Below, one piece after another: positions 199-10,831 of a DNA stretch of 21,203 bases; the first letter of the stretch is position 1, and the number at the start of each line of letters is the position of its first letter. Source of the DNA: Promethearchaeota archaeon (GTDB lineage: Archaea > Asgardarchaeota > Odinarchaeia > Odinarchaeales > JBHLKK01). Below the pieces are notes generated by a model. That model ran no database searches. It was not told the origin of the DNA and saw nothing but the letters and a program-made list of their open reading frames with translations. Location: NCBI GenBank assembly GCA_048939465.1, contig JBHLPL010000024.1:1-21203 (forward strand), written 5' to 3'. A program made the position numbers and the translations under genes.

Positions 199-798
199 AT
201 GAAGACAGTTGTTCTCTATGGAAGCCCAAGAAAGGATGGTAACTCAGCCACGCTGGCCAAGTACTTCTTGCAAGGATTAAGAACGAGCGGAATTAATGAG
301 ATTAAGGAATTCTATTCGAACGATTTGAACATCTCTCCTTGCCAAATGTGTGGATCCTGCGGCAAACCTGAACGAATCGAACTCACACCACACAACTGTA
401 TCACTTCAGACGATATGCACCCCATCTACGAAGCTTTCGCTGAAGCAAACATCGTCGTTTTTGCGACACCGATAATCTGGGGTTATATGACTGCCCAACT
501 CAAAAAAGTGTTAGATAGGCTGGAAGCGCTCGCCTCCAATAAATACTTCGGACACAAAACATTCGTTGTAATAATCACCTGCTGGCATCACCACGAGACC
601 TTAGTCGGGTTCTTCAAACGCGCGATAGAGGGCTATTATGAGGACGTTCAACTACATACTATCATCTACCGCTCTTGGGACCAGAATAATCGTAGTGACA
701 GACACGTTTTGACTTGTAATGAGAAGTTGCAGGAAGCACAAGAACTCGGCAGAACCATAGGAGAGAACCTGCAGATACGTGCAGGCAAAAAGCGATAA
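199..798 (+). CDS. Flavodoxin-fold NADPH-dependent FMN reductase / iron-sulfur flavoprotein (Isf)-like protein
   Basis: N-terminal GSPRKDGNS FMN phosphate-binding loop, CQMCGSC...C cysteine cluster followed by DDM, and VFATPIIWG...AQLKKVLDR motif. Confidence 0.85.
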   Translation: MKTVVLYGSPRKDGNSATLAKYFLQGLRTSGINEIKEFYSNDLNISPCQMCGSCGKPERIELTPHNCITSDDMHPIYEAFAEANIVVFATPIIWGYMTAQLKKVLDRLEALASNKYFGHKTFVVIITCWHHHETLVGFFKRAIEGYYEDVQLHTIIYRSWDQNNRSDRHVLTCNEKLQEAQELGRTIGENLQIRAGKKR

Positions 799-1446: not shown

Positions 1447-3000
1447 TTAAGATATCTCTCCTATAGAAACCCCGTCACCCCTTATATCGGCTGAGAGTAT
1501 CGCGACATTTCCTCTTTTCATACAGCAATGAGCCACACCCGTTCTGCTTGGATATTCTCGAGGTAATATCTCGTGACCAATTTTCTTGAGTCTCTGCAGC
1601 TCTTTGAACCCCCTTTCCACCAATACCTTTTTTCCTCCGGTCCAGAGGAACCTCGGTGCCTCGACTGCTTCTTGGAGACCCATGCCGTAATCGAATAGGT
1701 TCGTCAATAACAATACGTGCTGCTGTGGCCTGAAATCTCCTCCACTCATCCCCAAGGCCCACATTTCGTCTTCATCTGATGCTGCAATAACGGACGATAG
1801 CGTGTGCAAAGGTCTTTTCCTTGGTTCAAGCTTGTTTGGGCCTTTGAAATTAAAGTAAGACCCTCTTGAGTTCAAAACGATGCCTGTATCTGGATCCAAC
1901 AGGCCTGACCCAAAATGGTAAAAGATGCTTTGGATGGCCGAGACAACGTTTCCCCATCTATCGACAACTACAAAATTCGTAGTGTCAAGGGGTTTTAGAG
2001 AAGCTTCCACAAACACGCTGTTCAAATCAATGGTTTTTCCAAGTTTCTTTGCATGTTCTTTTGACAGAATTTCCTCTAAAGGCATTTGAGCAAAACGAGG
2101 GTCCGCCAAGTACCGATTCTTGTCTATGTATGCTCTTTTGGCAGCCTCAACAGACAGGTGAACTCTATCGGCATCAAAAGGTTTGAAATCGCCCAGATCA
2201 AAATCCTCTAAAATGTTGAGAATCTGGAGAGTTGTAGCCCCTTGGGTATTAGGGGGCATCTCATAAACATCAAAACCTCTATATTCTTCTTTCAACGGGT
2301 CGACCCACTCGGCAGTAAAATCTTCAAAATCATCGACTTCCAGCACTCCGCCCTCAGTTTTTAAGAACTTGCATAGGCTTTCTGATATCCATTTATCGTA
2401 GAAATCACGGGGATTGGAAGCCAGACTTTCAAAAGTTTTTGCCAATGACTTCTGGATCAAGATCTCACCGGGTTTAAGGGGTTTTCCTTCTCTGAAGAAG
2501 AGATCTCGGGCAGCCTTGCTCATTAGCTTAGATGCATTGACTTTTATGGCTCTCGAAAGTCCATGGCTAACTGGAAACCCCTTTTTGGCCAGCGAGATTG
2601 GGTATTCGAGTAATTGCTTGAACTCAGCTGTTCCAAATCTCTCGTGAGCCATGCGTAGACCGTCCATCATACCGGGTACGACAACAGAATGCGGAGATTC
2701 TACCGGTATGTCTCTGAATCCTTTATCCGCCAAGTATTCTAGCGTAAGTCTCTTTGGGCTCCAACCACTTCCATTCAGGCAATGGATGTTACCACTTGAA
2801 GACTCATAGATTAATGCAAAAAAGTCGCTACCCAAAGAGCCTAAATGGGGCTGGGTAACGGCTAATGACAAGCTTGTAGCCACAGTTGCGTCAATAGCAT
2901 TACCCCCACTAGAGAGAACTTTCATACCTGCGACGGACGCCATTGGATGTTCTGATGAAACTCCTCCTAAGGTTCCCATGAAGGGTGCTTTCAAAACCAA
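1447..3000 (-). CDS. ggt: Gamma-glutamyltransferase family protein (YwrD/HpxW-like Ntn hydrolase)
   Basis: TTG start with AGGTG RBS. GGNAIDA..A......V.QPH..SLGSD.F motif, autoproteolytic nucleophile site DTTNFVVVD, KRPLHTLS and GGDFRPQ motifs. Confidence 0.92.
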   Translation of the reverse strand: MVLKAPFMGTLGGVSSEHPMASVAGMKVLSSGGNAIDATVATSLSLAVTQPHLGSLGSDFFALIYESSSGNIHCLNGSGWSPKRLTLEYLADKGFRDIPVESPHSVVVPGMMDGLRMAHERFGTAEFKQLLEYPISLAKKGFPVSHGLSRAIKVNASKLMSKAARDLFFREGKPLKPGEILIQKSLAKTFESLASNPRDFYDKWISESLCKFLKTEGGVLEVDDFEDFTAEWVDPLKEEYRGFDVYEMPPNTQGATTLQILNILEDFDLGDFKPFDADRVHLSVEAAKRAYIDKNRYLADPRFAQMPLEEILSKEHAKKLGKTIDLNSVFVEASLKPLDTTNFVVVDRWGNVVSAIQSIFYHFGSGLLDPDTGIVLNSRGSYFNFKGPNKLEPRKRPLHTLSSVIAASDEDEMWALGMSGGDFRPQQHVLLLTNLFDYGMGLQEAVEAPRFLWTGGKKVLVERGFKELQRLKKIGHEILPREYPSRTGVAHCCMKRGNVAILSADIRGDGVSIGEIS

Positions 3001-3144: not shown

Positions 3145-4581
3145 TTGAAGGAATACGATTTGATAGTGATAGGATCGGGCTCTGCAATGAGTATTGTAGA
3201 TGCGATGATTCAGCAAAATCCGAGTCTTAAGGTCGCTGTCATAGATAAGGATGAACCTGGTGGAATCTGTTTAACTCGCGGCTGTATACCTACTAAGATA
3301 TTGACATACTCTGCCGATACGGTGAGAGCGATAGAAAAGGCAAGAGAGTTTGGCATAGAGGCCAAAATTGAGAAGATAGATTTTCAGAAGGTCATGGAGA
3401 GGATGCGAAATATTATCTACCCAGATATAAACCAGATCGGAGAAGGCCTCTCTCACTCCAAGAATATAGACTATCATCGAGATGTTGCTGAGTTTACAGC
3501 TCCGTATACACTCAAGGTGGCCAATGACACCATAACCTCGAAGTTGATTATTCTCGGGACAGGCTCGAAACCCAAGATCCCACCTGTCAAAGGTCTCGGG
3601 GATGTAGGCTATCATACCAGTGATACGATTCTCAAAATAGATCGGTTGCCTAAAAGTATGGCCATCATCGGTGGAGGATACATAGCCGCTGAATATGGTC
3701 ACTTCTTCTCAGCCATGGGATCGGACGTAACTATTGTAGGAAGGAATCCTCAATTCCTTCCAGAAGAGGAACCAGAGATTTCGGCTTTGGCAAAAAGGGA
3801 GCTACAGAAACACATGAAGATCTTTACCAATCATGAGGTTCGTAGCGCTGAGAGATTATCAACAAATAAGAAGAAATTAGTGGCGGTTAACGGGCGGAAT
3901 GAGAAGGAGTTGGAAGTGGCCGCTGAGGAAATACTGGTCGCGGCAGGAAGAGCTCCAAACACAGACATACTCCATCCGGAAAAAGGTGGAATCCAGGTGG
4001 ATGGAGGAGGCTGGATCGTTGTCAACGAACATCTGGAGAGTTCACAACCAAATATCTGGGCATTGGGTGATGCTAACGGAAAACACCTCTTCAAGCATGT
4101 TGCAAACTATGAGTCAATGATAGTCTATTACAATGCCGTATTGAAGAGCAATCTGAAGGTGGATTATCATGCCATACCACATGCCGTTTTCACGAATCCC
4201 GAAATAGCGAGTGTGGGACTTAGAGAGAAGGAAGCTTTAGAAAAATACGGGGATGAGAAGGTATTAATCGGGATTAATAGATACCAAGACACCGGCAAAG
4301 GAGAAGCTATGGGTGCAAGGGACTACTTTGCTAAGATCATCCTTGAAGGGGAAACCATGAAGATCTTGGGAGCTCACATAATCGGGCCACAAGCTTCTGT
4401 CCTCATACAAGAAGTAATTAACCTGATGTATACCCCCGAGCAAAGCGCCGAACCGATTATTAGAGGGATGCATATTCATCCTGCTCTGAGCGAAGTGGTG
4501 GAACGGGCGTTTGATTCCCTCATGTCGCCTGAACAATACCATCACCTTATGGAGCATCACTACGGATTGCCCACCGGCTAG
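3145..4581 (+). CDS. Class I pyridine nucleotide-disulfide oxidoreductase (dihydrolipoamide dehydrogenase / mycothione reductase-like)
   Basis: FAD-binding VIGSGS, redox disulfide GGICLTRGCIPTK, C-terminal HIHPALSE. The second dinucleotide motif GGGYIAAE and the strand VTIVGRN suggest NADP(H) preference, so lpdA is not asserted. Confidence 0.9.
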   Translation: MKEYDLIVIGSGSAMSIVDAMIQQNPSLKVAVIDKDEPGGICLTRGCIPTKILTYSADTVRAIEKAREFGIEAKIEKIDFQKVMERMRNIIYPDINQIGEGLSHSKNIDYHRDVAEFTAPYTLKVANDTITSKLIILGTGSKPKIPPVKGLGDVGYHTSDTILKIDRLPKSMAIIGGGYIAAEYGHFFSAMGSDVTIVGRNPQFLPEEEPEISALAKRELQKHMKIFTNHEVRSAERLSTNKKKLVAVNGRNEKELEVAAEEILVAAGRAPNTDILHPEKGGIQVDGGGWIVVNEHLESSQPNIWALGDANGKHLFKHVANYESMIVYYNAVLKSNLKVDYHAIPHAVFTNPEIASVGLREKEALEKYGDEKVLIGINRYQDTGKGEAMGARDYFAKIILEGETMKILGAHIIGPQASVLIQEVINLMYTPEQSAEPIIRGMHIHPALSEVVERAFDSLMSPEQYHHLMEHHYGLPTG

Positions 4582-4602: not shown

Positions 4603-5250
4603 TCAATCCGCATTATTCGATTCAGCAAGATAACTAATTACATCGTTGAAATCATCGATTTCAAGACACTTTAACCCTCGTTTCTTGCAGAAGCTAGCTA
4701 GTTTACCCCCTCTGATAGCAAATACGAAGTCTGCCGCTCTCGCAGCATTGTAATCTCCTATACCGTCTCCTATGTAGGATACATTCATAGCAATCTCCTT
4801 GGAATTCTCAACTATGCCTTCCTTGAAGTCTTCAGTTCCAGGAAGATGTTTGAAGGAAAGAGTTATTCCCTCCTCTCCGTGGCATCTTGCTACAGGGGCA
4901 TAAATGGGGATTTCACTAATACTGTTGATTCTCAGTATGTACTTTATTACAAAATCAAGTCCTGCGCTAACTATCGATAAAGGAATATCGTTCACCCTAC
5001 AGTACTCAACAAAATCATTAAACCCTGACCTTATCTTTACCCCCTCGACCAGGTGTATTATCTCATTTCTTGTTTTCTTAATCATAGCAACTTCTTTCAT
5101 CATACATTCTGCAAGAGTAATCTCTCCACGTTCCAGCTGTTCATCGTAAACCTTCCAGCTGTCAGGAACAAGTTCCTCAAGGATGTATTCCACTGTATCA
5201 AATTCCACAATTGTGCCATCAAAATCGCACATTATTACTCTTCTATACAT
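4603..5250 (-). CDS. HAD-superfamily phosphatase (MtnX/phosphoserine phosphatase-like)
   Basis: Motif I CDFDGTI, motif II IVSAG, motif III K (DFKEG), motif IV YIGDGIGD. ATG at 5250 chosen; an upstream GTG at 5259 is also possible. Confidence 0.88.
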   Translation of the reverse strand: MYRRVIMCDFDGTIVEFDTVEYILEELVPDSWKVYDEQLERGEITLAECMMKEVAMIKKTRNEIIHLVEGVKIRSGFNDFVEYCRVNDIPLSIVSAGLDFVIKYILRINSISEIPIYAPVARCHGEEGITLSFKHLPGTEDFKEGIVENSKEIAMNVSYIGDGIGDYNAARAADFVFAIRGGKLASFCKKRGLKCLEIDDFNDVISYLAESNNAD

Positions 5251-5313
5251 ACAGATCACATCGTTTTGCGACTGGAGGCTCTAACCCTCTGAATTGAGGG
5301 GGACGATTCCCTT

Positions 5314-6177
5314 CTACTTTTTTAGTTGTGTGGTTTGGTTTCTTATGGCTTCCGCAACTTCCACAGCTTCTACGGTCTCATGCACGTCATGCGTTCTGAT
5401 CATGTGAACCCCCTCATAAACTGCGATGGCCGTCGCGGCGAGACTTCCTACTAGACGGTCTTCGGGTTTCTCTATTCCAAGTACTTTGCCGATGAAATTC
5501 TTTCTCGATAAGCTGATCAGGATTGGTTTCTCCAATATCCGAAATTCAGCCAGGTTTCGGATAATTCGTAAATCGTGGCGGTGATCCTTTCCAAATCCCA
5601 CACCTGGATCTATTACAATGTTGGTCTCATCTATCTCGTTCCTAAGAGCTATTGAAATGCTTGTTTTTAATTCCCTGATGATGGATTCTATATTGCCGAC
5701 GTCGCCTGGCTTTTCTTTTGTTGCCATTAATACTGCTGCGGCACCGTACTCTGATATTACTCTCGCCATATTTGGATCTGTCTTGAGACCACTAACATCG
5801 TTTACTACGGAGGCACCTAATTTCAAAGCAGCTTCTGCTACCTCTGCTCTCTGTGTGTCGACTGAAATGGGAGTTTCAGTTGCATCTCTTATTATCGATA
5901 TTGCCCTAATCATTCGCTCTTTTTCGACAGAAAGCGACTCCATATGAGGTTTTTCATATATTTCCGGAGGAGCTGTTGAAATTGCCCCAACATCAATAAT
6001 TGCTGCGCCCTCTTCAGTCAGTTCTAGGGCAAAATTAGCTATCTCATCATCTTCAAGTCTCACCGAAGGCTTGTAGAACGAGTCCGGTGAACAATTGATA
6101 ATGCCAACAACCTTAACGGAGTAAGAATCTCCTACTCTAATCTTTGCTATTTCCCCATATACTGCCAAACTTGACAA
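5314..6177 (-). CDS. folP: Dihydropteroate synthase
   Basis: GIINCSPDSFY, IIDVGAIST.P, ISVDTQRAEVAEAAL, NDVSG, DPGVGFGK, SRKNFIG and IRTHDV are all DHPS signature segments. Confidence 0.95.
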   Translation of the reverse strand: MSSLAVYGEIAKIRVGDSYSVKVVGIINCSPDSFYKPSVRLEDDEIANFALELTEEGAAIIDVGAISTAPPEIYEKPHMESLSVEKERMIRAISIIRDATETPISVDTQRAEVAEAALKLGASVVNDVSGLKTDPNMARVISEYGAAAVLMATKEKPGDVGNIESIIRELKTSISIALRNEIDETNIVIDPGVGFGKDHRHDLRIIRNLAEFRILEKPILISLSRKNFIGKVLGIEKPEDRLVGSLAATAIAVYEGVHMIRTHDVHETVEAVEVAEAIRNQTTQLKK

Positions 6178-6204
6178 CCCCTTGTTAGACTCATAAAGAC
6201 TTTT

Positions 6205-6266
6205 AGTAAGTTTTTTTATACGTGATACTATTAAGTTTGCTCAAAATCATATCGATTTGAGGAGGT
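6205..6266. promoter_or_regulatory. Divergent folP/gcvT promoter region with an inverted repeat touching the gcvT RBS
   Basis: Plus-strand TTTTTATA (to 6220); minus-strand CAAAC-TTAATA (6239-6229). Imperfect inverted repeat CTCAAAATC-ATATC-GATTTGAG (6240-6261) runs into the RBS GAGGAGGT. Confidence 0.45.
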
Positions 6267-6273
6267 CTATCCA

Positions 6274-7425
6274 ATGGGAAAGGAGCTCAGAGTCACCCAT
6301 TTACATGAGTGGCATGCTGAGAGGGCTAAAATGGTAGAATTTGTGGGCTATCATATGCCAATTTGGTACAATGAAACTGGAATAGTCGTTGAACACATGG
6401 CCGTCCGACGGAGTGTGGGCATCTTTGATGTTACACACATGGGACGTTTTATGTTTAATGGGGCAGAAGCTGAGGATTTTCTGAACTATACGACCACAAA
6501 TGATGTCTCCAAGCTTGGTCTTGGTCAAGGACTATATTCAACCATTTGCAACGATAATGGAGGCATAATTGACGATCTGATTATCTACAGGCTGGAGCAA
6601 AATCGATTCTTCGTCATTGTCAATTCTGCGAACAAAGAAAAAGATTTTGATTGGTTCAAGGCTCATGAGGGGGGTTATGGTGTCAAGATCGAAAACATAT
6701 CGGACTCTACGCCTCAATTCGCAGTTCAGGGTCCAAAGGCTGTTGCTACGCTGCAAAAACTGACTGACGATGACTTGAACAGGTATTCTTCTTTTGGGGA
6801 TACGGTTGTTACAGCACTGGCTGGCCATCAGGTTATTGCAACAAGAACTGGTTATACTGGGGAAGATGGATTCGAGATTTCTCAGCTGAATGTTCCTCTA
6901 GCGAAACCCGCGAATGCTATACGCCTCTGGGAAAAGATCTTGGAAGCTGGTAAGGAATTTAAGATCGTGCCCGTTGGTTTGGGCGCCAGAGACACTCTGC
7001 GATTAGAGGCAGGAATGCCACTTCACGGTAGCGATATAGACGAAACTACGACACCTCTTGAAGCCAGACTCAGATTTGTGGTTAAGCTAAAAAAAGGAGA
7101 CTTCATCGGTCGTGAAGCCCTTCTAAAACAGAAAGAAGAGGGAGTAAAACGATTTCGCGTAGGGCTAATAATGATAGACAAAGGTATCCCCCGTCCTCAC
7201 TATGATATCTTTAACGGTGGCGGAAAAATCGGTGAGACCACAAGCGGCAACTACTCTCCATTATTGCCTCGAGGACAGGGTGTTGCTCTAGGTTATGTCA
7301 AACGTAAATGGCGTATCAGCGGGACAATGGTACGCGTGGCCATCCACGGTAAAAGACGTGTGGCGGAGGTTATTAGTCCCCGTAAGATGCTGGGAAGACT
7401 GAAGTCACGTGCAGCACAGTTATGA
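6274..7425 (+). CDS. gcvT: Glycine cleavage system T protein (aminomethyltransferase)
   Basis: GAGGAGGT RBS. MVEFVGYHMPIWY, EHMAVR..VGIFDVTHMG, GGIIDD, AVQGPKA, RTGYTGEDGFE and GLGARDTLRLEAG motifs. Confidence 0.96.
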   Translation: MGKELRVTHLHEWHAERAKMVEFVGYHMPIWYNETGIVVEHMAVRRSVGIFDVTHMGRFMFNGAEAEDFLNYTTTNDVSKLGLGQGLYSTICNDNGGIIDDLIIYRLEQNRFFVIVNSANKEKDFDWFKAHEGGYGVKIENISDSTPQFAVQGPKAVATLQKLTDDDLNRYSSFGDTVVTALAGHQVIATRTGYTGEDGFEISQLNVPLAKPANAIRLWEKILEAGKEFKIVPVGLGARDTLRLEAGMPLHGSDIDETTTPLEARLRFVVKLKKGDFIGREALLKQKEEGVKRFRVGLIMIDKGIPRPHYDIFNGGGKIGETTSGNYSPLLPRGQGVALGYVKRKWRISGTMVRVAIHGKRRVAEVISPRKMLGRLKSRAAQL

Positions 7426-7480
7426 CTTATCTGGCAGAGTTCTATTACGTGCTCAGTACACCAGTTCTCTTTTCATCTCT

Positions 7481-7497
7481 GATAAAAAATTTTTAAG
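7481..7497 (+). promoter_or_regulatory. Candidate BRE-TATA promoter of gcvH
   Basis: GATAAAAAA-TTTTTAAG about 50 nt upstream of the GTG start, within a 122-nt intergenic gap. Confidence 0.5.
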
Positions 7498-7547
7498 GTA
7501 GATTATTCTCCTACTAGGTTGACTAAATATCCGGAGGAGGATTTTGG

Positions 7548-7988
7548 GTGAAGGTCAACGATTATGAAATCTCTGAGGGTTTCTACTATACAAAAACTCA
7601 TGAGTGGGTAAAAGTTGAAGGAAGCAATGTTCGTGTAGGGCTTACAGATTATGCGCAGAAACAGCTTCGGGACATCGTCTATGTAGAGTACATCGATGCT
7701 GAGGACAATACTGTCGAAGCAGGAAGCCAGGTGGTCCCGGCTTCGCAGTTTGCCTCCGTAGAGTCTGTGAAAGCAACTTCAGAAGTATATGCTCCTGTTA
7801 AGGGCGAAGTTGTGGAAGTGAATGATGCTTTGGAAGATAGTCCAGAGCTAATCAATAGTGATACTTACGGTCAGGGTTGGCTTGTTATTATAAGGGCAGG
7901 GGATTTAGATAAGCAATTATCCAAGCTGATGACACCCGAACAATACGCAGGATTCCTTAAGGAGGAAGTGAAGAGAGAACAAGAATAG
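7548..7988 (+). CDS. gcvH: Glycine cleavage system H protein (lipoyl carrier)
   Basis: GGAGGAGG RBS and GTG start. YYTKTHEW, VGLTDYAQ..L.DIVYVE, lipoylation site VESVKA, P.LINSD.YG.GW. Confidence 0.96.
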   Translation: MKVNDYEISEGFYYTKTHEWVKVEGSNVRVGLTDYAQKQLRDIVYVEYIDAEDNTVEAGSQVVPASQFASVESVKATSEVYAPVKGEVVEVNDALEDSPELINSDTYGQGWLVIIRAGDLDKQLSKLMTPEQYAGFLKEEVKREQE

Positions 7989-8109
7989 TCTTGCTCCTTA
8001 TTTTCAAATCTTTTATTTTGGTTCGAAGGTATCAACTTATGTCAACATTTCTTCAATTTAAGATAATCTGCCTTTGTCTTATTTCTCCTACTTCGTTGGG
8101 TGCAAACAA

Positions 8110-9228
8110 ATGAGTAAAATCAGAAGATTAGGGCTGATCGTTAATCCAATTGCAGGACTGGGTGGCAGCGTAGGCCTTAAGGGCACGGATGGCATAGAGA
8201 TCATCAACAAAGCAATAGCCCTTGGTGCCAAACCTGTTGCACCAGACAGAGCAAAAGAGACTCTGGGGGAATTGAGATCCATAAAGGGTATGATTGAACT
8301 TATCACATATCCAGAAGAGATGGGCGAGACGGAGGCGAAGGAATGCGGCTTTGATCCAATCGTCATAGGTGACTTGTCAGCTGACAAGACCACAGCTGAT
8401 GATACCAAGAACGCGGCTAAAGCTATGCAGAAGTTGCCCGTTGATTTGCTTTTGTTTTGCGGGGGTGATGGAACCGCTACAGATATTGTCGACGCCATAG
8501 ACAAGAAAGTACCTATTATTGGAATTCCTGCTGGAGTTAAGATGCATAGCGCTGTTTTTACGACAACACCCACGGCTGCTGCCGAAATCACAATTAGATA
8601 CCTCAAAGAAGGTCTTCCTCTCAGAGAAGAGGAAGTTGTTGATATTGATGAAGTTGCATTCAGAGAAGGAAGGCTTTCTACATCATTAAAAGGATATGCT
8701 CTTGTTCCTTACGAGCCGGTTTATCTACAAGGGGTCAAGGTTGCCAGTCCGATTACGCACGATGACGAACTTGACAAGGAAGCAATTGCAAGAAGAATCG
8801 TTGAGGAGATGGAACCGAATATACTCTATATTTTGGGTCCAGGCACAACTCTCAAAGCCATAACTGATCTCTTAAAAGTAGGGAAAACACCCTTAGGGGT
8901 GGATTTACTTGAAAATAAACAGATTGTTGCAAAAGACGTTAATGAAAAACAGATACTTAAAGCGATAAGTGGAAAGAGCGCTAAGATAATAGTTACTCTC
9001 ATAGGAAATCAAGGTTTTATATTTGGCAGAGGAAATCAACAGATAAGTCCGAAGGTTATCAAAAAAGTTGGGTTAAAGAACATAATTGTTATTGCAACAC
9101 CTTACAAACTCTCAACAACACCTGTTCTGCGAGTAGATACCGGCGACAAAGAACTGGACTCCTCACTTAAAGGATACATGAAGGTGCTTTCGGGCTATAC
9201 TGAGAAAAGGGTATTGAAAGTTCACTAA
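8110..9228 (+). CDS. ATP-NAD kinase-like protein (COG3199/AcoX-type)
   Basis: GLIVNPIAGLGG.VGLKGTDG, GGDGTA, GIPAGVKMHSAVF, LGPGTT and QGFIFGRGNQQISP motifs. Start moved to ATG 8110; the ORF track begins at 8074. Confidence 0.88.
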   Translation: MSKIRRLGLIVNPIAGLGGSVGLKGTDGIEIINKAIALGAKPVAPDRAKETLGELRSIKGMIELITYPEEMGETEAKECGFDPIVIGDLSADKTTADDTKNAAKAMQKLPVDLLLFCGGDGTATDIVDAIDKKVPIIGIPAGVKMHSAVFTTTPTAAAEITIRYLKEGLPLREEEVVDIDEVAFREGRLSTSLKGYALVPYEPVYLQGVKVASPITHDDELDKEAIARRIVEEMEPNILYILGPGTTLKAITDLLKVGKTPLGVDLLENKQIVAKDVNEKQILKAISGKSAKIIVTLIGNQGFIFGRGNQQISPKVIKKVGLKNIIVIATPYKLSTTPVLRVDTGDKELDSSLKGYMKVLSGYTEKRVLKVH

Positions 9229-9285
9229 ACAAGTTCTGCCTCCGATTTCCAGCAGAACATCAAAAAAAGTGTGTGTGATGTAAGA

Positions 9286-10053
9286 ATGCGATTATTGCCC
9301 ATTAGAACCAGAGTTATTAAACCAGATGATGACATCGTGGAAATATTATTAGATGTGCTGAATCATGATGGCATTGAGCTTGAAGACAAAGATATTCTGG
9401 TTATCGCCGAGACTGCTTTGGGCACAGCGCAAGGAAGATTGGTCAAGCTGGATGAAATAAAACCTTCAAAGCACGCCAAGGAACTTGCAGCAAAATATCA
9501 ATTAGAATCCGAAATTGCTGAGCTAATAATACGTGAAGCTGATACAATACTTGGTGGCATTCCTCATGTCTTACTCACAATCAAGAGCAAAGTATTCATG
9601 GCGAATGCAGGAATTGACAAGAGTAATGCTCCTCTGGGTTATGTCTCTCTGCTTCCAAAAGATCCCACACGTGATGCCAATGAGATAAAGAATAATATAT
9701 TTCAAAGAACCGGAAAGCAGATTGGCGTGATAATCGCAGATAGTCGGACACAACCTCTACGTCTTGGAACAGTTGGACTTTGTATCGGTGTTTCAGGCAT
9801 AGTGCCTGTATCTGATGAGCGAGGTCATCCTGATATCTTTGGAAGACCCCTTCAGATCACGAGGAGGGCTGTGGCAGACAATTTGGCGTCAGCCGCTGAA
9901 GTGTTGATGGGTGAGGCGGACGAAAGGGTTCCTGCTGTCTTGATAAAGAATGCTCCTGTTGAATTTACTGAAGAACTGACTCCGTCCGATTTGATGTACA
10001 TTCCACTTGATGAGTGTATGTATATGGCTGTATTCAAAGATAAAGCACGTTGA
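9286..10053 (+). CDS. cofE: CofE-family gamma-glutamyl ligase (F420-0:glutamate ligase family; possibly a folate FolC2-type enzyme)
   Basis: DILVIAET, MANAGIDKSNA, LLPKDP, GVIIADS...PLR.G, D.FGR.L..T...VADNLASAA.VLMGE.DE..PAVLI. Start moved to ATG 9286. Confidence 0.85.
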   Translation: MRLLPIRTRVIKPDDDIVEILLDVLNHDGIELEDKDILVIAETALGTAQGRLVKLDEIKPSKHAKELAAKYQLESEIAELIIREADTILGGIPHVLLTIKSKVFMANAGIDKSNAPLGYVSLLPKDPTRDANEIKNNIFQRTGKQIGVIIADSRTQPLRLGTVGLCIGVSGIVPVSDERGHPDIFGRPLQITRRAVADNLASAAEVLMGEADERVPAVLIKNAPVEFTEELTPSDLMYIPLDECMYMAVFKDKAR

Positions 10054-10072
10054 GACGCCGCGTGATTAAGAA

Positions 10073-10831
10073 ATGGATTTCAACAACAATCCCAACGTCC
10101 TGTTCCGCGGTAGAGTTTTCTTGAGAACATGGTATCCAAAAATCTTAAAGAAGTTTGGTTATTCTCGAGAAGGAGATATCAGGGCCGAGAAAGTTTTGCA
10201 TAGGCTTCTTGATAAACGGGGACTAACGTTTGATGCTATCAAACCTATTCTTGAGAACAGGACTACAATAATATACGGTGCTGGCCCCTCCCTACCTGAA
10301 GATATTTCAGTGGTTGCCAAAAAACCCGACTCTGGGTTGTTCATTCATGTGGCAGCCGATGGTGCTGCATACGCTTTGCTAGAGCACAACATTCTCCCCC
10401 GCATTGTTGTTACTGATTTAGATGGACTAGACCTAGATATTTTGATTCGATTACACTCATTAGATACCATATTTGCTGTTCATGCCCATGGAGACAACAT
10501 TGATCTCATTGAAAAACTCGTACCCAAGATAGCTGACAAAGTTGTTGGTACAACTCAATCCATACCGTCGGCGCCACTTATCAATACTGGTGGCTTTACA
10601 GACGGAGATCGCGCTGTTTGCTTTGTAGAAGCGGCAAAACCCAGAAGAATACTGCTTGCCGGGATGGACTTTGGCCCGGTAATTGGGAAGTATTCGAAAC
10701 CCTTCCTAGACAAAGATATTGTTGCCCCAACTGTAAAAAGAAAAAAACTGGAGGTTGCCAAGGAAATTGTGGAATGGATAGTTGAGACTACGAGTATACC
10801 AATAACTGATGTCAAAAAAGAAGACTTTTAA
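10073..10831 (+). CDS. mptE: 6-hydroxymethyl-7,8-dihydropterin pyrophosphokinase, archaeal type (DUF115)
   Basis: YGAGPSL, AADGA, VVTDLDG, VHAHGDN, GGFTDGDRA and LAGMDFG motifs. Confidence 0.9.
   Translation: MDFNNNPNVLFRGRVFLRTWYPKILKKFGYSREGDIRAEKVLHRLLDKRGLTFDAIKPILENRTTIIYGAGPSLPEDISVVAKKPDSGLFIHVAADGAAYALLEHNILPRIVVTDLDGLDLDILIRLHSLDTIFAVHAHGDNIDLIEKLVPKIADKVVGTTQSIPSAPLINTGGFTDGDRAVCFVEAAKPRRILLAGMDFGPVIGKYSKPFLDKDIVAPTVKRKKLEVAKEIVEWIVETTSIPITDVKKEDF

Follow-up and report, generated by a model that had tools for sequence, protein, structure and literature searches.

A CofE-family ligase encoded among folate genes in Asgard archaea as a probable substitute for FolC

We analysed contig JBHLPL010000024.1 (21,203 nucleotides, referred to in its whole length as the window) of an Asgard archaeal metagenome-assembled genome (GCA_048939465.1; 1.96 Mb, 152 contigs, 91% complete; hereafter G000), in which a gene for a CofE-family gamma-glutamyl ligase lies among folate genes. 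The dihydropteroate synthase gene folP [5314-6177, minus strand, 287 amino acids (aa); TIGR01496 237.3 bits with a cut-off of 162.6, PF00809 207 bits] is divergent from gcvT, encoding a folate-dependent aminomethyltransferase (6274-7425, plus strand; NF001567 412 bits, PF01571 298 bits), with 96 base pairs (bp) between them. Downstream of gcvT, also on the plus strand, follow gcvH for the glycine cleavage H protein (7548-7988; NF002270 149.5 bits), a long gene of the NAD-kinase fold (8074-9228, 384 aa; PF01513 and PF20143, no NCBIfam model above cut-off), the CofE-family gene (9286-10053, alternative start 9271, 255 aa; PF01996 249 bits) and an mptE-like gene for 6-hydroxymethyl-7,8-dihydropterin diphosphokinase (10073-10831; PF01973 80.8 bits with a cut-off of 34.6, no NCBIfam match), whose 3' end is overlapped for 23 bp by the archaeal topA. 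Since the gaps along the five plus-strand genes measure only 122, 85, 57 and 19 bp in this order, the genes from gcvT to mptE fit a putative single transcription unit. MptE is the archaeal replacement for FolK and supplies the pterin substrate of FolP. A sequence-only reading of the stretch, made earlier, had described this gene set and order for 5314-10831, had noted that the window holds no cofC, cofD, cofG or cofH gene, and had pointed to a motif D-S-R-T-Q-P-L-R instead of a GRP-type segment in the ligase; profile matches confirmed every gene at these coordinates, none of the four cof genes was found within the window, and the motif occupies residues 152-159 of the ligase (255 aa). We consider it probable (roughly 70%) that this CofE-type protein glutamylates the product of FolP, standing in for FolC, the Mur-ligase-family dihydrofolate synthase/folylpolyglutamate synthase. 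The reading is supported by computation, namely by the anatomy of the locus, the clade, the residues, the linkage to folP and the absence of FolC, from which we infer the substrate and the reaction.

CofE of Archaeoglobus fulgidus (Af-CofE; PDB 2PHN, 2G9I, 7ULD, 8G8P) and CofE of Methanocaldococcus jannaschii are F420-0:L-glutamate ligases, and CofE activates its substrate with GTP and Mn2+. A rival explanation would make the window protein such an enzyme as well, that is, a true F420-0:L-glutamate ligase and a second CofE isoenzyme (adding, for example, a different number of glutamates), whose adjacency to folP would be a relic of ancestral gene order and not the sign of a common role. Two PF01996 genes are present in G000, one in the window and one on contig 31, and this second, canonical-looking CofE on another contig is a correction to the sequence-only reading. 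In favour of an F420 ligase, the window copy scored 205.2 bits with the CofE model TIGR01916, above the cut-off of 180.65. With NF009809 it scored 209.8 bits, below the cut-off of 274, and with the model TIGR04132 of the chlamydial FolC2, which the same reading had invoked, it reached 123.2 bits, far below the cut-off of 350, and so is no member of that model. The contig-31 copy (249 aa) passed both CofE equivalogs (TIGR01916 290 bits, NF009809 286.5 bits) and scored 79 bits with TIGR04132, and a phmmer comparison with Af-CofE gave 149.5 bits for the window copy and 189.6 bits for the contig-31 copy. The contig-31 gene (L004:8471-9220, minus strand) overlaps a gene for a MobA-like nucleotidyltransferase (9217-9840, minus strand) with a weak CofC match. 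For this copy, which is of the G-R type defined by the residues described below, no CofD or CofH was found in G000 or in its two congeners, and G-R-type copies without CofD or CofH occur in Thor genomes too. Contig 31 also bears a 971-aa, intein-containing RtcB RNA ligase with a LAGLIDADG homing endonuclease domain (L004:2958-5873, minus strand).

In the 2024 structures of Af-CofE, the deazaflavin ring packs on G153-C155 and stacks with R234 from the other subunit of the dimer (PMC10861534). The window copy has T-Q-P in place of G153-R154-C155 and no arginine aligned with R234, and it ends in ...D-E-C-M-Y-M-A-V-F, where an E-C-x-Y signature replaces E-x-D-L-F-R; the contig-31 copy retains G-R-P and the arginine, the latter within a C-terminal ...I-R-P-x-E-E-D-L-F-R. 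The motif difference proved to be fixed when 120 close relatives per paralogue were compared (D-S-R-T-Q-P-L-R-L-G in the window type versus S-D-T-h-G-R-P-l-R in the second type), and this clade-wide replacement of the F420 ring contacts argues against an F420 ligase. In 17 diverse FolP-linked proteins, which represent at least 12 families, D111, D152, P157, E210 and C244 were invariant and S153 nearly so. D111, D152, S153 and E210 correspond to D109, D150, T151 and E208 of Af-CofE, which the 2007 structure paper reportedly describes as catalytic residues, the acidic ones serving as metal ligands. Since the acidic residues are invariant and the F420-ring contacts are replaced, the window enzyme looks catalytically intact, and its pocket, where the substrate's non-glutamate end would sit, appears to have been rebuilt. 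An AlphaFold2 model [predicted local distance difference test (pLDDT) 80] had the CofE fold, with a template modelling (TM) score of 0.81-0.84 to Af-CofE at 33% identity and with low confidence in the swapped hairpin (91-107) and in the T-Q-P loop (155-162); a fold and catalytic residues as in CofE also suit a second F420 ligase. A Pfam scan of the window protein found no Mur-ligase domain.

In a 65-sequence maximum-likelihood tree, which was midpoint-rooted and comprised only Asgard and metagenomic relatives (no chlamydial FolC2, methanogen CofE or characterised outgroups), all copies adjoining folP, gcvT or mtrH formed one branch [Shimodaira-Hasegawa-like approximate likelihood-ratio test (SH-aLRT) 97], and the contig-31 copy grouped with Bathyarchaeia and Jord matches and with a copy of the closed genome G038 that adjoins cofD. 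The window clade thus stands apart from the canonical-type copies; its relation to FolC2 was read from hidden Markov model (HMM) scores only. The closest named relatives of the window protein belong to Promethearchaeota and to Baldr-, Odin- and Thorarchaeota.

The association with folP recurs among the 201 Asgard genomes sampled, whose families are numbered here with an f (f6 being Thorarchaeota). In 20-kb loci, window-type cofE lay beside folP in 12 of 19 genomes, and among the 122 genomes listed for both window-type cofE and FolP, whose coordinates were cross-matched by hand, the two genes were within 3 kb of each other on one contig in 65 and within 5.5 kb in 71. The folP-linked copies came from 11 families (f1, f2, f3, f4, f9, f12, f14, f15, f19, f21 and f25), and the two genes were divergent, convergent or co-directional depending on the genome; linkage that recurs in differing orientations in so many families speaks against gene order that was merely inherited. 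The grouping exceeds a chance neighbourhood, as these genes are found together again in many further Asgard genomes. Odin-like genomes and those of the same genus likewise keep cofE next to mptE. The closed genome G038, in which cofH and cofG are present, separates the paralogues most plainly: its G-R-type copy (C1:998259-998909) adjoins cofD (C1:997370-998164) and its window-type copy (C1:1929264-1930013) adjoins folP (1930160-1930921), so that cofD neighbours the other paralogue and not the one that an F420 reading of the window gene would require. The contexts of the G-R-type copies in one Thor genome were uninformative. In Thorarchaeota, window-type cofE stands in a conserved run mtrH-mtrA-mtrH-DUF2114-cofE-larC-polB (L067:1900-8267 and some 50 further loci, L036-L108); among the 80 best pattern loci together with Thor locus L009, mtrA/mtrH were present in 49-51 loci, DUF2114 in 60 and larC in 62. 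MtrH is a pterin-binding methyltransferase, and the run ties the non-G-R ligase to corrinoid/pterin methyltransferases.

Relatives were also sought beyond Asgard archaea. The strict pattern [IA]-D-S-R-T-Q-P-L-R, searched over 185,579 species genomes, returned 124 relatives, the best 80 of which were all Asgard, and a profile run against 1.84 billion representatives revealed a much wider non-G-R branch, with G-R types first appearing at rank ~76 (242 bits). Named non-G-R members came from Heimdall-type archaea, Thermoplasmata, Peregrinibacteria, Gracilibacteria and the Patescibacteria group, and of ten bacterial-looking representatives of this branch that were scored, six had their best match with the FolC2 model. 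A gene for a PurN-like formyltransferase overlaps or follows the non-G-R gene in P0290 (Peregrinibacteria) and in P0344, which belong to different 50%-identity clusters, and the sole CofE-FolP fusion (P0263, 555 aa, non-G-R motif) was encoded on one 4.4-kb metagenomic contig (L125:1400-3067). These matches bear on the further possibility that the folate neighbours mislead and that the target, for instance some other cofactor, a peptide or a protein, is related neither to folate nor to F420. CofE-family members are indeed little sampled biochemically, and one relative, P0252 (397 aa, on a 3.3-kb ENA contig), seen once, joins a non-G-R CofE domain to a cytidine/dCMP deaminase domain. An unrelated target is nevertheless highly improbable, given the independent ties to folate genes in Asgard archaea, Thermoplasmata and Patescibacteria-type bacteria and a family distribution that tracks FolP.

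FolC (TIGR01499) was above cut-off in none of the 201 Asgard genomes (86 of high quality), G000 included, and the same model matched in 11 of 14 control genomes. FolP was above cut-off in 164 of the 201, and most families lacking it were also without a window-type copy (f11, f16, f17, f20 and f22). CofD was found in 133 of the 201 genomes, which favours an F420 ligase in general terms, as does an FrhB-like gene in G000; among Thor genomes it was detected in 7 of 43, and the three genomes of the present genus, G000 included, gave no match. In G000, at 91% completeness, there was no CofD, no CofH above cut-off and no beta-ribofuranosylaminobenzene 5'-phosphate (RFAP) synthase, and for CofC only the weak match in the MobA-like gene; among five genomes checked, only G038 had CofH together with RFAP synthase. 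Among the outcomes that would contradict a folate ligase, the sequence-only reading had itself named a grouping with bona fide CofE and a genome with a full F420 pathway plus a canonical folC: the tree placed the window clade apart (SH-aLRT 97), and CofD, CofH and FolC were not found in the source genome. Occurrence of the clade in genomes without a detected CofD, CofH or RFAP synthase counts against an F420-0 substrate, and so do the fusions, since every fusion to nitroreductase (FbiB-type) or Fno among the profile-search matches carries the G-R motif and none the window type. Taking scores, residues, linkage and distribution together, we regard a second F420-0 ligase as very unlikely.

The evidence from gene context applies equally to a folate or pterin gamma-glutamyl ligase whose substrate is not dihydropteroate, which might be tetrahydropteroate (after a pteroate reductase), p-aminobenzoate (yielding pABA-Glu for FolP) or a modified archaeal folate, or whose activity might be confined to tail elongation. 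Families without FolP that keep the gene beside gcvT, as in f13 (locus L013), fit tail elongation on salvaged folate, and the methyltransferases MtrH and MtrA as partners in Thor genomes would suit another pterin. Consistently with a modified substrate, FolP carries an extra C-terminal region of ~140 aa in f6, f7, f15 and f19 (open frames of 402-456 aa; for example L011:10477-11715, plus strand), a region that in G038 had no Pfam match; in contrast, the 287-aa FolP of G000 lacks this extension and passes the classical dihydropteroate synthase equivalog. The failure to find RFAP synthase in G000 makes a methanopterin-type carrier unlikely in this genome, and a methanopterin-type substrate was rejected for it on the same ground. 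Moreover, FolC was not found, so some enzyme must add the first glutamate. We therefore hold a folate-type substrate other than dihydropteroate to be rather unlikely, and dihydropteroate, the product of FolP, remains the substrate that we favour.

Several observations weigh against this preferred substrate or against the folate assignment as a whole. The window protein passes the CofE equivalog TIGR01916 (205 versus 180.65 bits) and fails the FolC2 model (123 versus 350 bits), and the FrhB-like gene of G000 makes some use of deazaflavin possible. G-R-type copies persist without a detected CofD or CofH in the genus of G000 and in Thor genomes, and absence of the F420 pathway alone therefore cannot separate the two paralogues. 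Neighbourhoods inside one phylum are non-independent observations, and exceptions to the linkage concentrate in two families, cofE being near folP in none of 36 Thorarchaeota (f6) and in none of four genomes of family f7. The FolP-less families f13 (closed genomes) and f5 retain window-type copies, which fit folate salvage, yet weaken strict co-occurrence. The P0263 fusion could reflect a stop codon lost in assembly and, because it was seen on one contig only, we treat it as weak support. Finally, the real substitute for FolC could be an unrelated ligase, for example an ATP-grasp enzyme.

In the pathway that we propose, a branch of the CofE family would have changed its substrate from F420 to pteroate or folate. 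MptE would form hydroxymethyl-dihydropterin diphosphate, which FolP would condense with p-aminobenzoate to dihydropteroate; the ligase would then activate the substrate carboxylate with a nucleoside triphosphate and add L-glutamate (dihydrofolate synthase activity), probably followed by further gamma-glutamates (folylpolyglutamate synthase activity), and the product would serve GcvT, serine hydroxymethyltransferase (SHMT) and MtrH-type enzymes. Besides the genes of the window, G000 encodes an MptA-type GTP cyclohydrolase and holds two genes each for SHMT and for MtrH-like proteins; neither FolD nor Fhs was found in this genome. A short-chain dehydrogenase/reductase (SDR) gene follows folP in the same direction in the Odin-like closed genome G001 (L006:13599-14399, minus strand), and its orthologue in G000 (C71:14179-14964) shares 56% identity with it; the encoded protein may be a FolM/PTR1-like substitute for dihydrofolate reductase (DHFR).

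The long NAD-kinase-fold gene between gcvH and cofE deserves attention as a candidate for a new gene in folate metabolism. Elsewhere in G000 there is a gene for an ordinary NAD kinase of 278 aa, and each of five genomes checked had a normal NAD kinase (~280-300 aa) and a long paralogue (~380 aa; in G038 at C1:1677944-1679044). The long form occurred in 166 of the 201 Asgard genomes with a family pattern nearly equal to that of window-type cofE: the FolP-less families f5, f8 and f13 have it, and f11, f17, f20, f22 and most of f16 do not. It stands next to cofE in Odin-like genomes as well as in the present genus and lies 3 kb off in Baldr-like ones, and in a Thor genome (L109:8562-9692) it belongs to a run of an unknown gene, the NADK-like gene, an S-adenosylmethionine (SAM) hydroxide adenosyltransferase gene, one further gene, fhs, folD and FTCD.

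The remaining genes near folP have less certain connections to the pathway. The next gene downstream of folP, read from the same strand, encodes an MtnX-like phosphatase of the haloacid dehalogenase subfamily IB (HAD-IB; 4603-5259, minus strand; TIGR01489 87 bits with a cut-off of 81.55), which could be a candidate dihydroneopterin-phosphate phosphatase of the pterin branch. Its position beside folP is kept only within the same genus. It is followed by lpdA (3145-4581, plus strand; NF004947 748 bits with a cut-off of 592) for dihydrolipoyl dehydrogenase, the L protein serving the glycine cleavage system. Upstream of the lpdA/folP block are genes for a gamma-glutamyltransferase (1447-3000, minus strand) and for an NADPH-dependent flavin mononucleotide (FMN) reductase (199-798, plus strand), for which putative roles in folate tails or in pteroate reduction are conceivable.

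If the ligase acts as we propose, the missing dihydrofolate synthase step would be filled in Asgard archaea, which are the closest prokaryotic relatives of eukaryotes, and a systematic annotation would be corrected, as thousands of database entries read 'coenzyme F420-0:L-glutamate ligase'; for window-type copies, the label of an F420 gene is probably wrong. A simple sequence rule, G-R versus D-S-x-x-x-P with a C-terminal cysteine, would split the family. A review credits Odin- and Thorarchaeota with only 'several' F420 genes (PMC8498797), and part of that signal may be the folate-linked paralogue. The NAD-kinase-fold protein, uncharacterised so far, would stand out as a further candidate product for folate metabolism. 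A much broader picture, which we offer tentatively as possible rather than probable, would join the long NAD-kinase-fold protein, the non-G-R CofE and MptE into an undescribed late module of archaeal folate synthesis, in which a COG3199-type kinase would be a new pathway enzyme, the substrate of the ligase would be a reduced or modified pteroate, and the Asgard one-carbon (C1) carrier would be made without FolK, FolC or a classical DHFR; the whole non-G-R branch (Asgard archaea, Thermoplasmata, Patescibacteria-type bacteria and the FolC2 of Chlamydia) would then be one ancient folate-ligase family mislabelled as F420 ligase. Full-text literature searches, whose coverage of possibly relevant work was incomplete, returned no description of this archaeal clade.

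Four known systems provide the points of comparison. With FolC, the window protein shares the proposed reaction and the position in the pathway; the folds are unrelated, and the two would thus be analogous, not homologous. With Af-CofE it shares the fold, the aligned acidic residues, approximately the same length and a single domain, but its ring-binding segment, R234 and C-terminus are replaced, and its neighbours are folate genes and not cof genes. FbiB of mycobacteria, which joins a CofE and a nitroreductase domain, has the CofE domain in common with the window protein, which in contrast is single-domain and without the G-R motif. The precedent for the proposed role is CT611 (FolC2) of Chlamydia trachomatis, a CofE homologue that complements an Escherichia coli folC mutant (PMC1971073). 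Both proteins belong to PF01996/COG1478 and cluster with folate genes where folP is present and folC absent, and the window protein outscores its G-R-type paralogue on the FolC2 model (123 versus 79 bits). In contrast to FolC2, the window protein remains below that model's cut-off of 350, is archaeal, is partnered with MptE rather than FolK, and belongs to a clade with its own signature (D-S-R-T-Q-P, E-C-x-Y).

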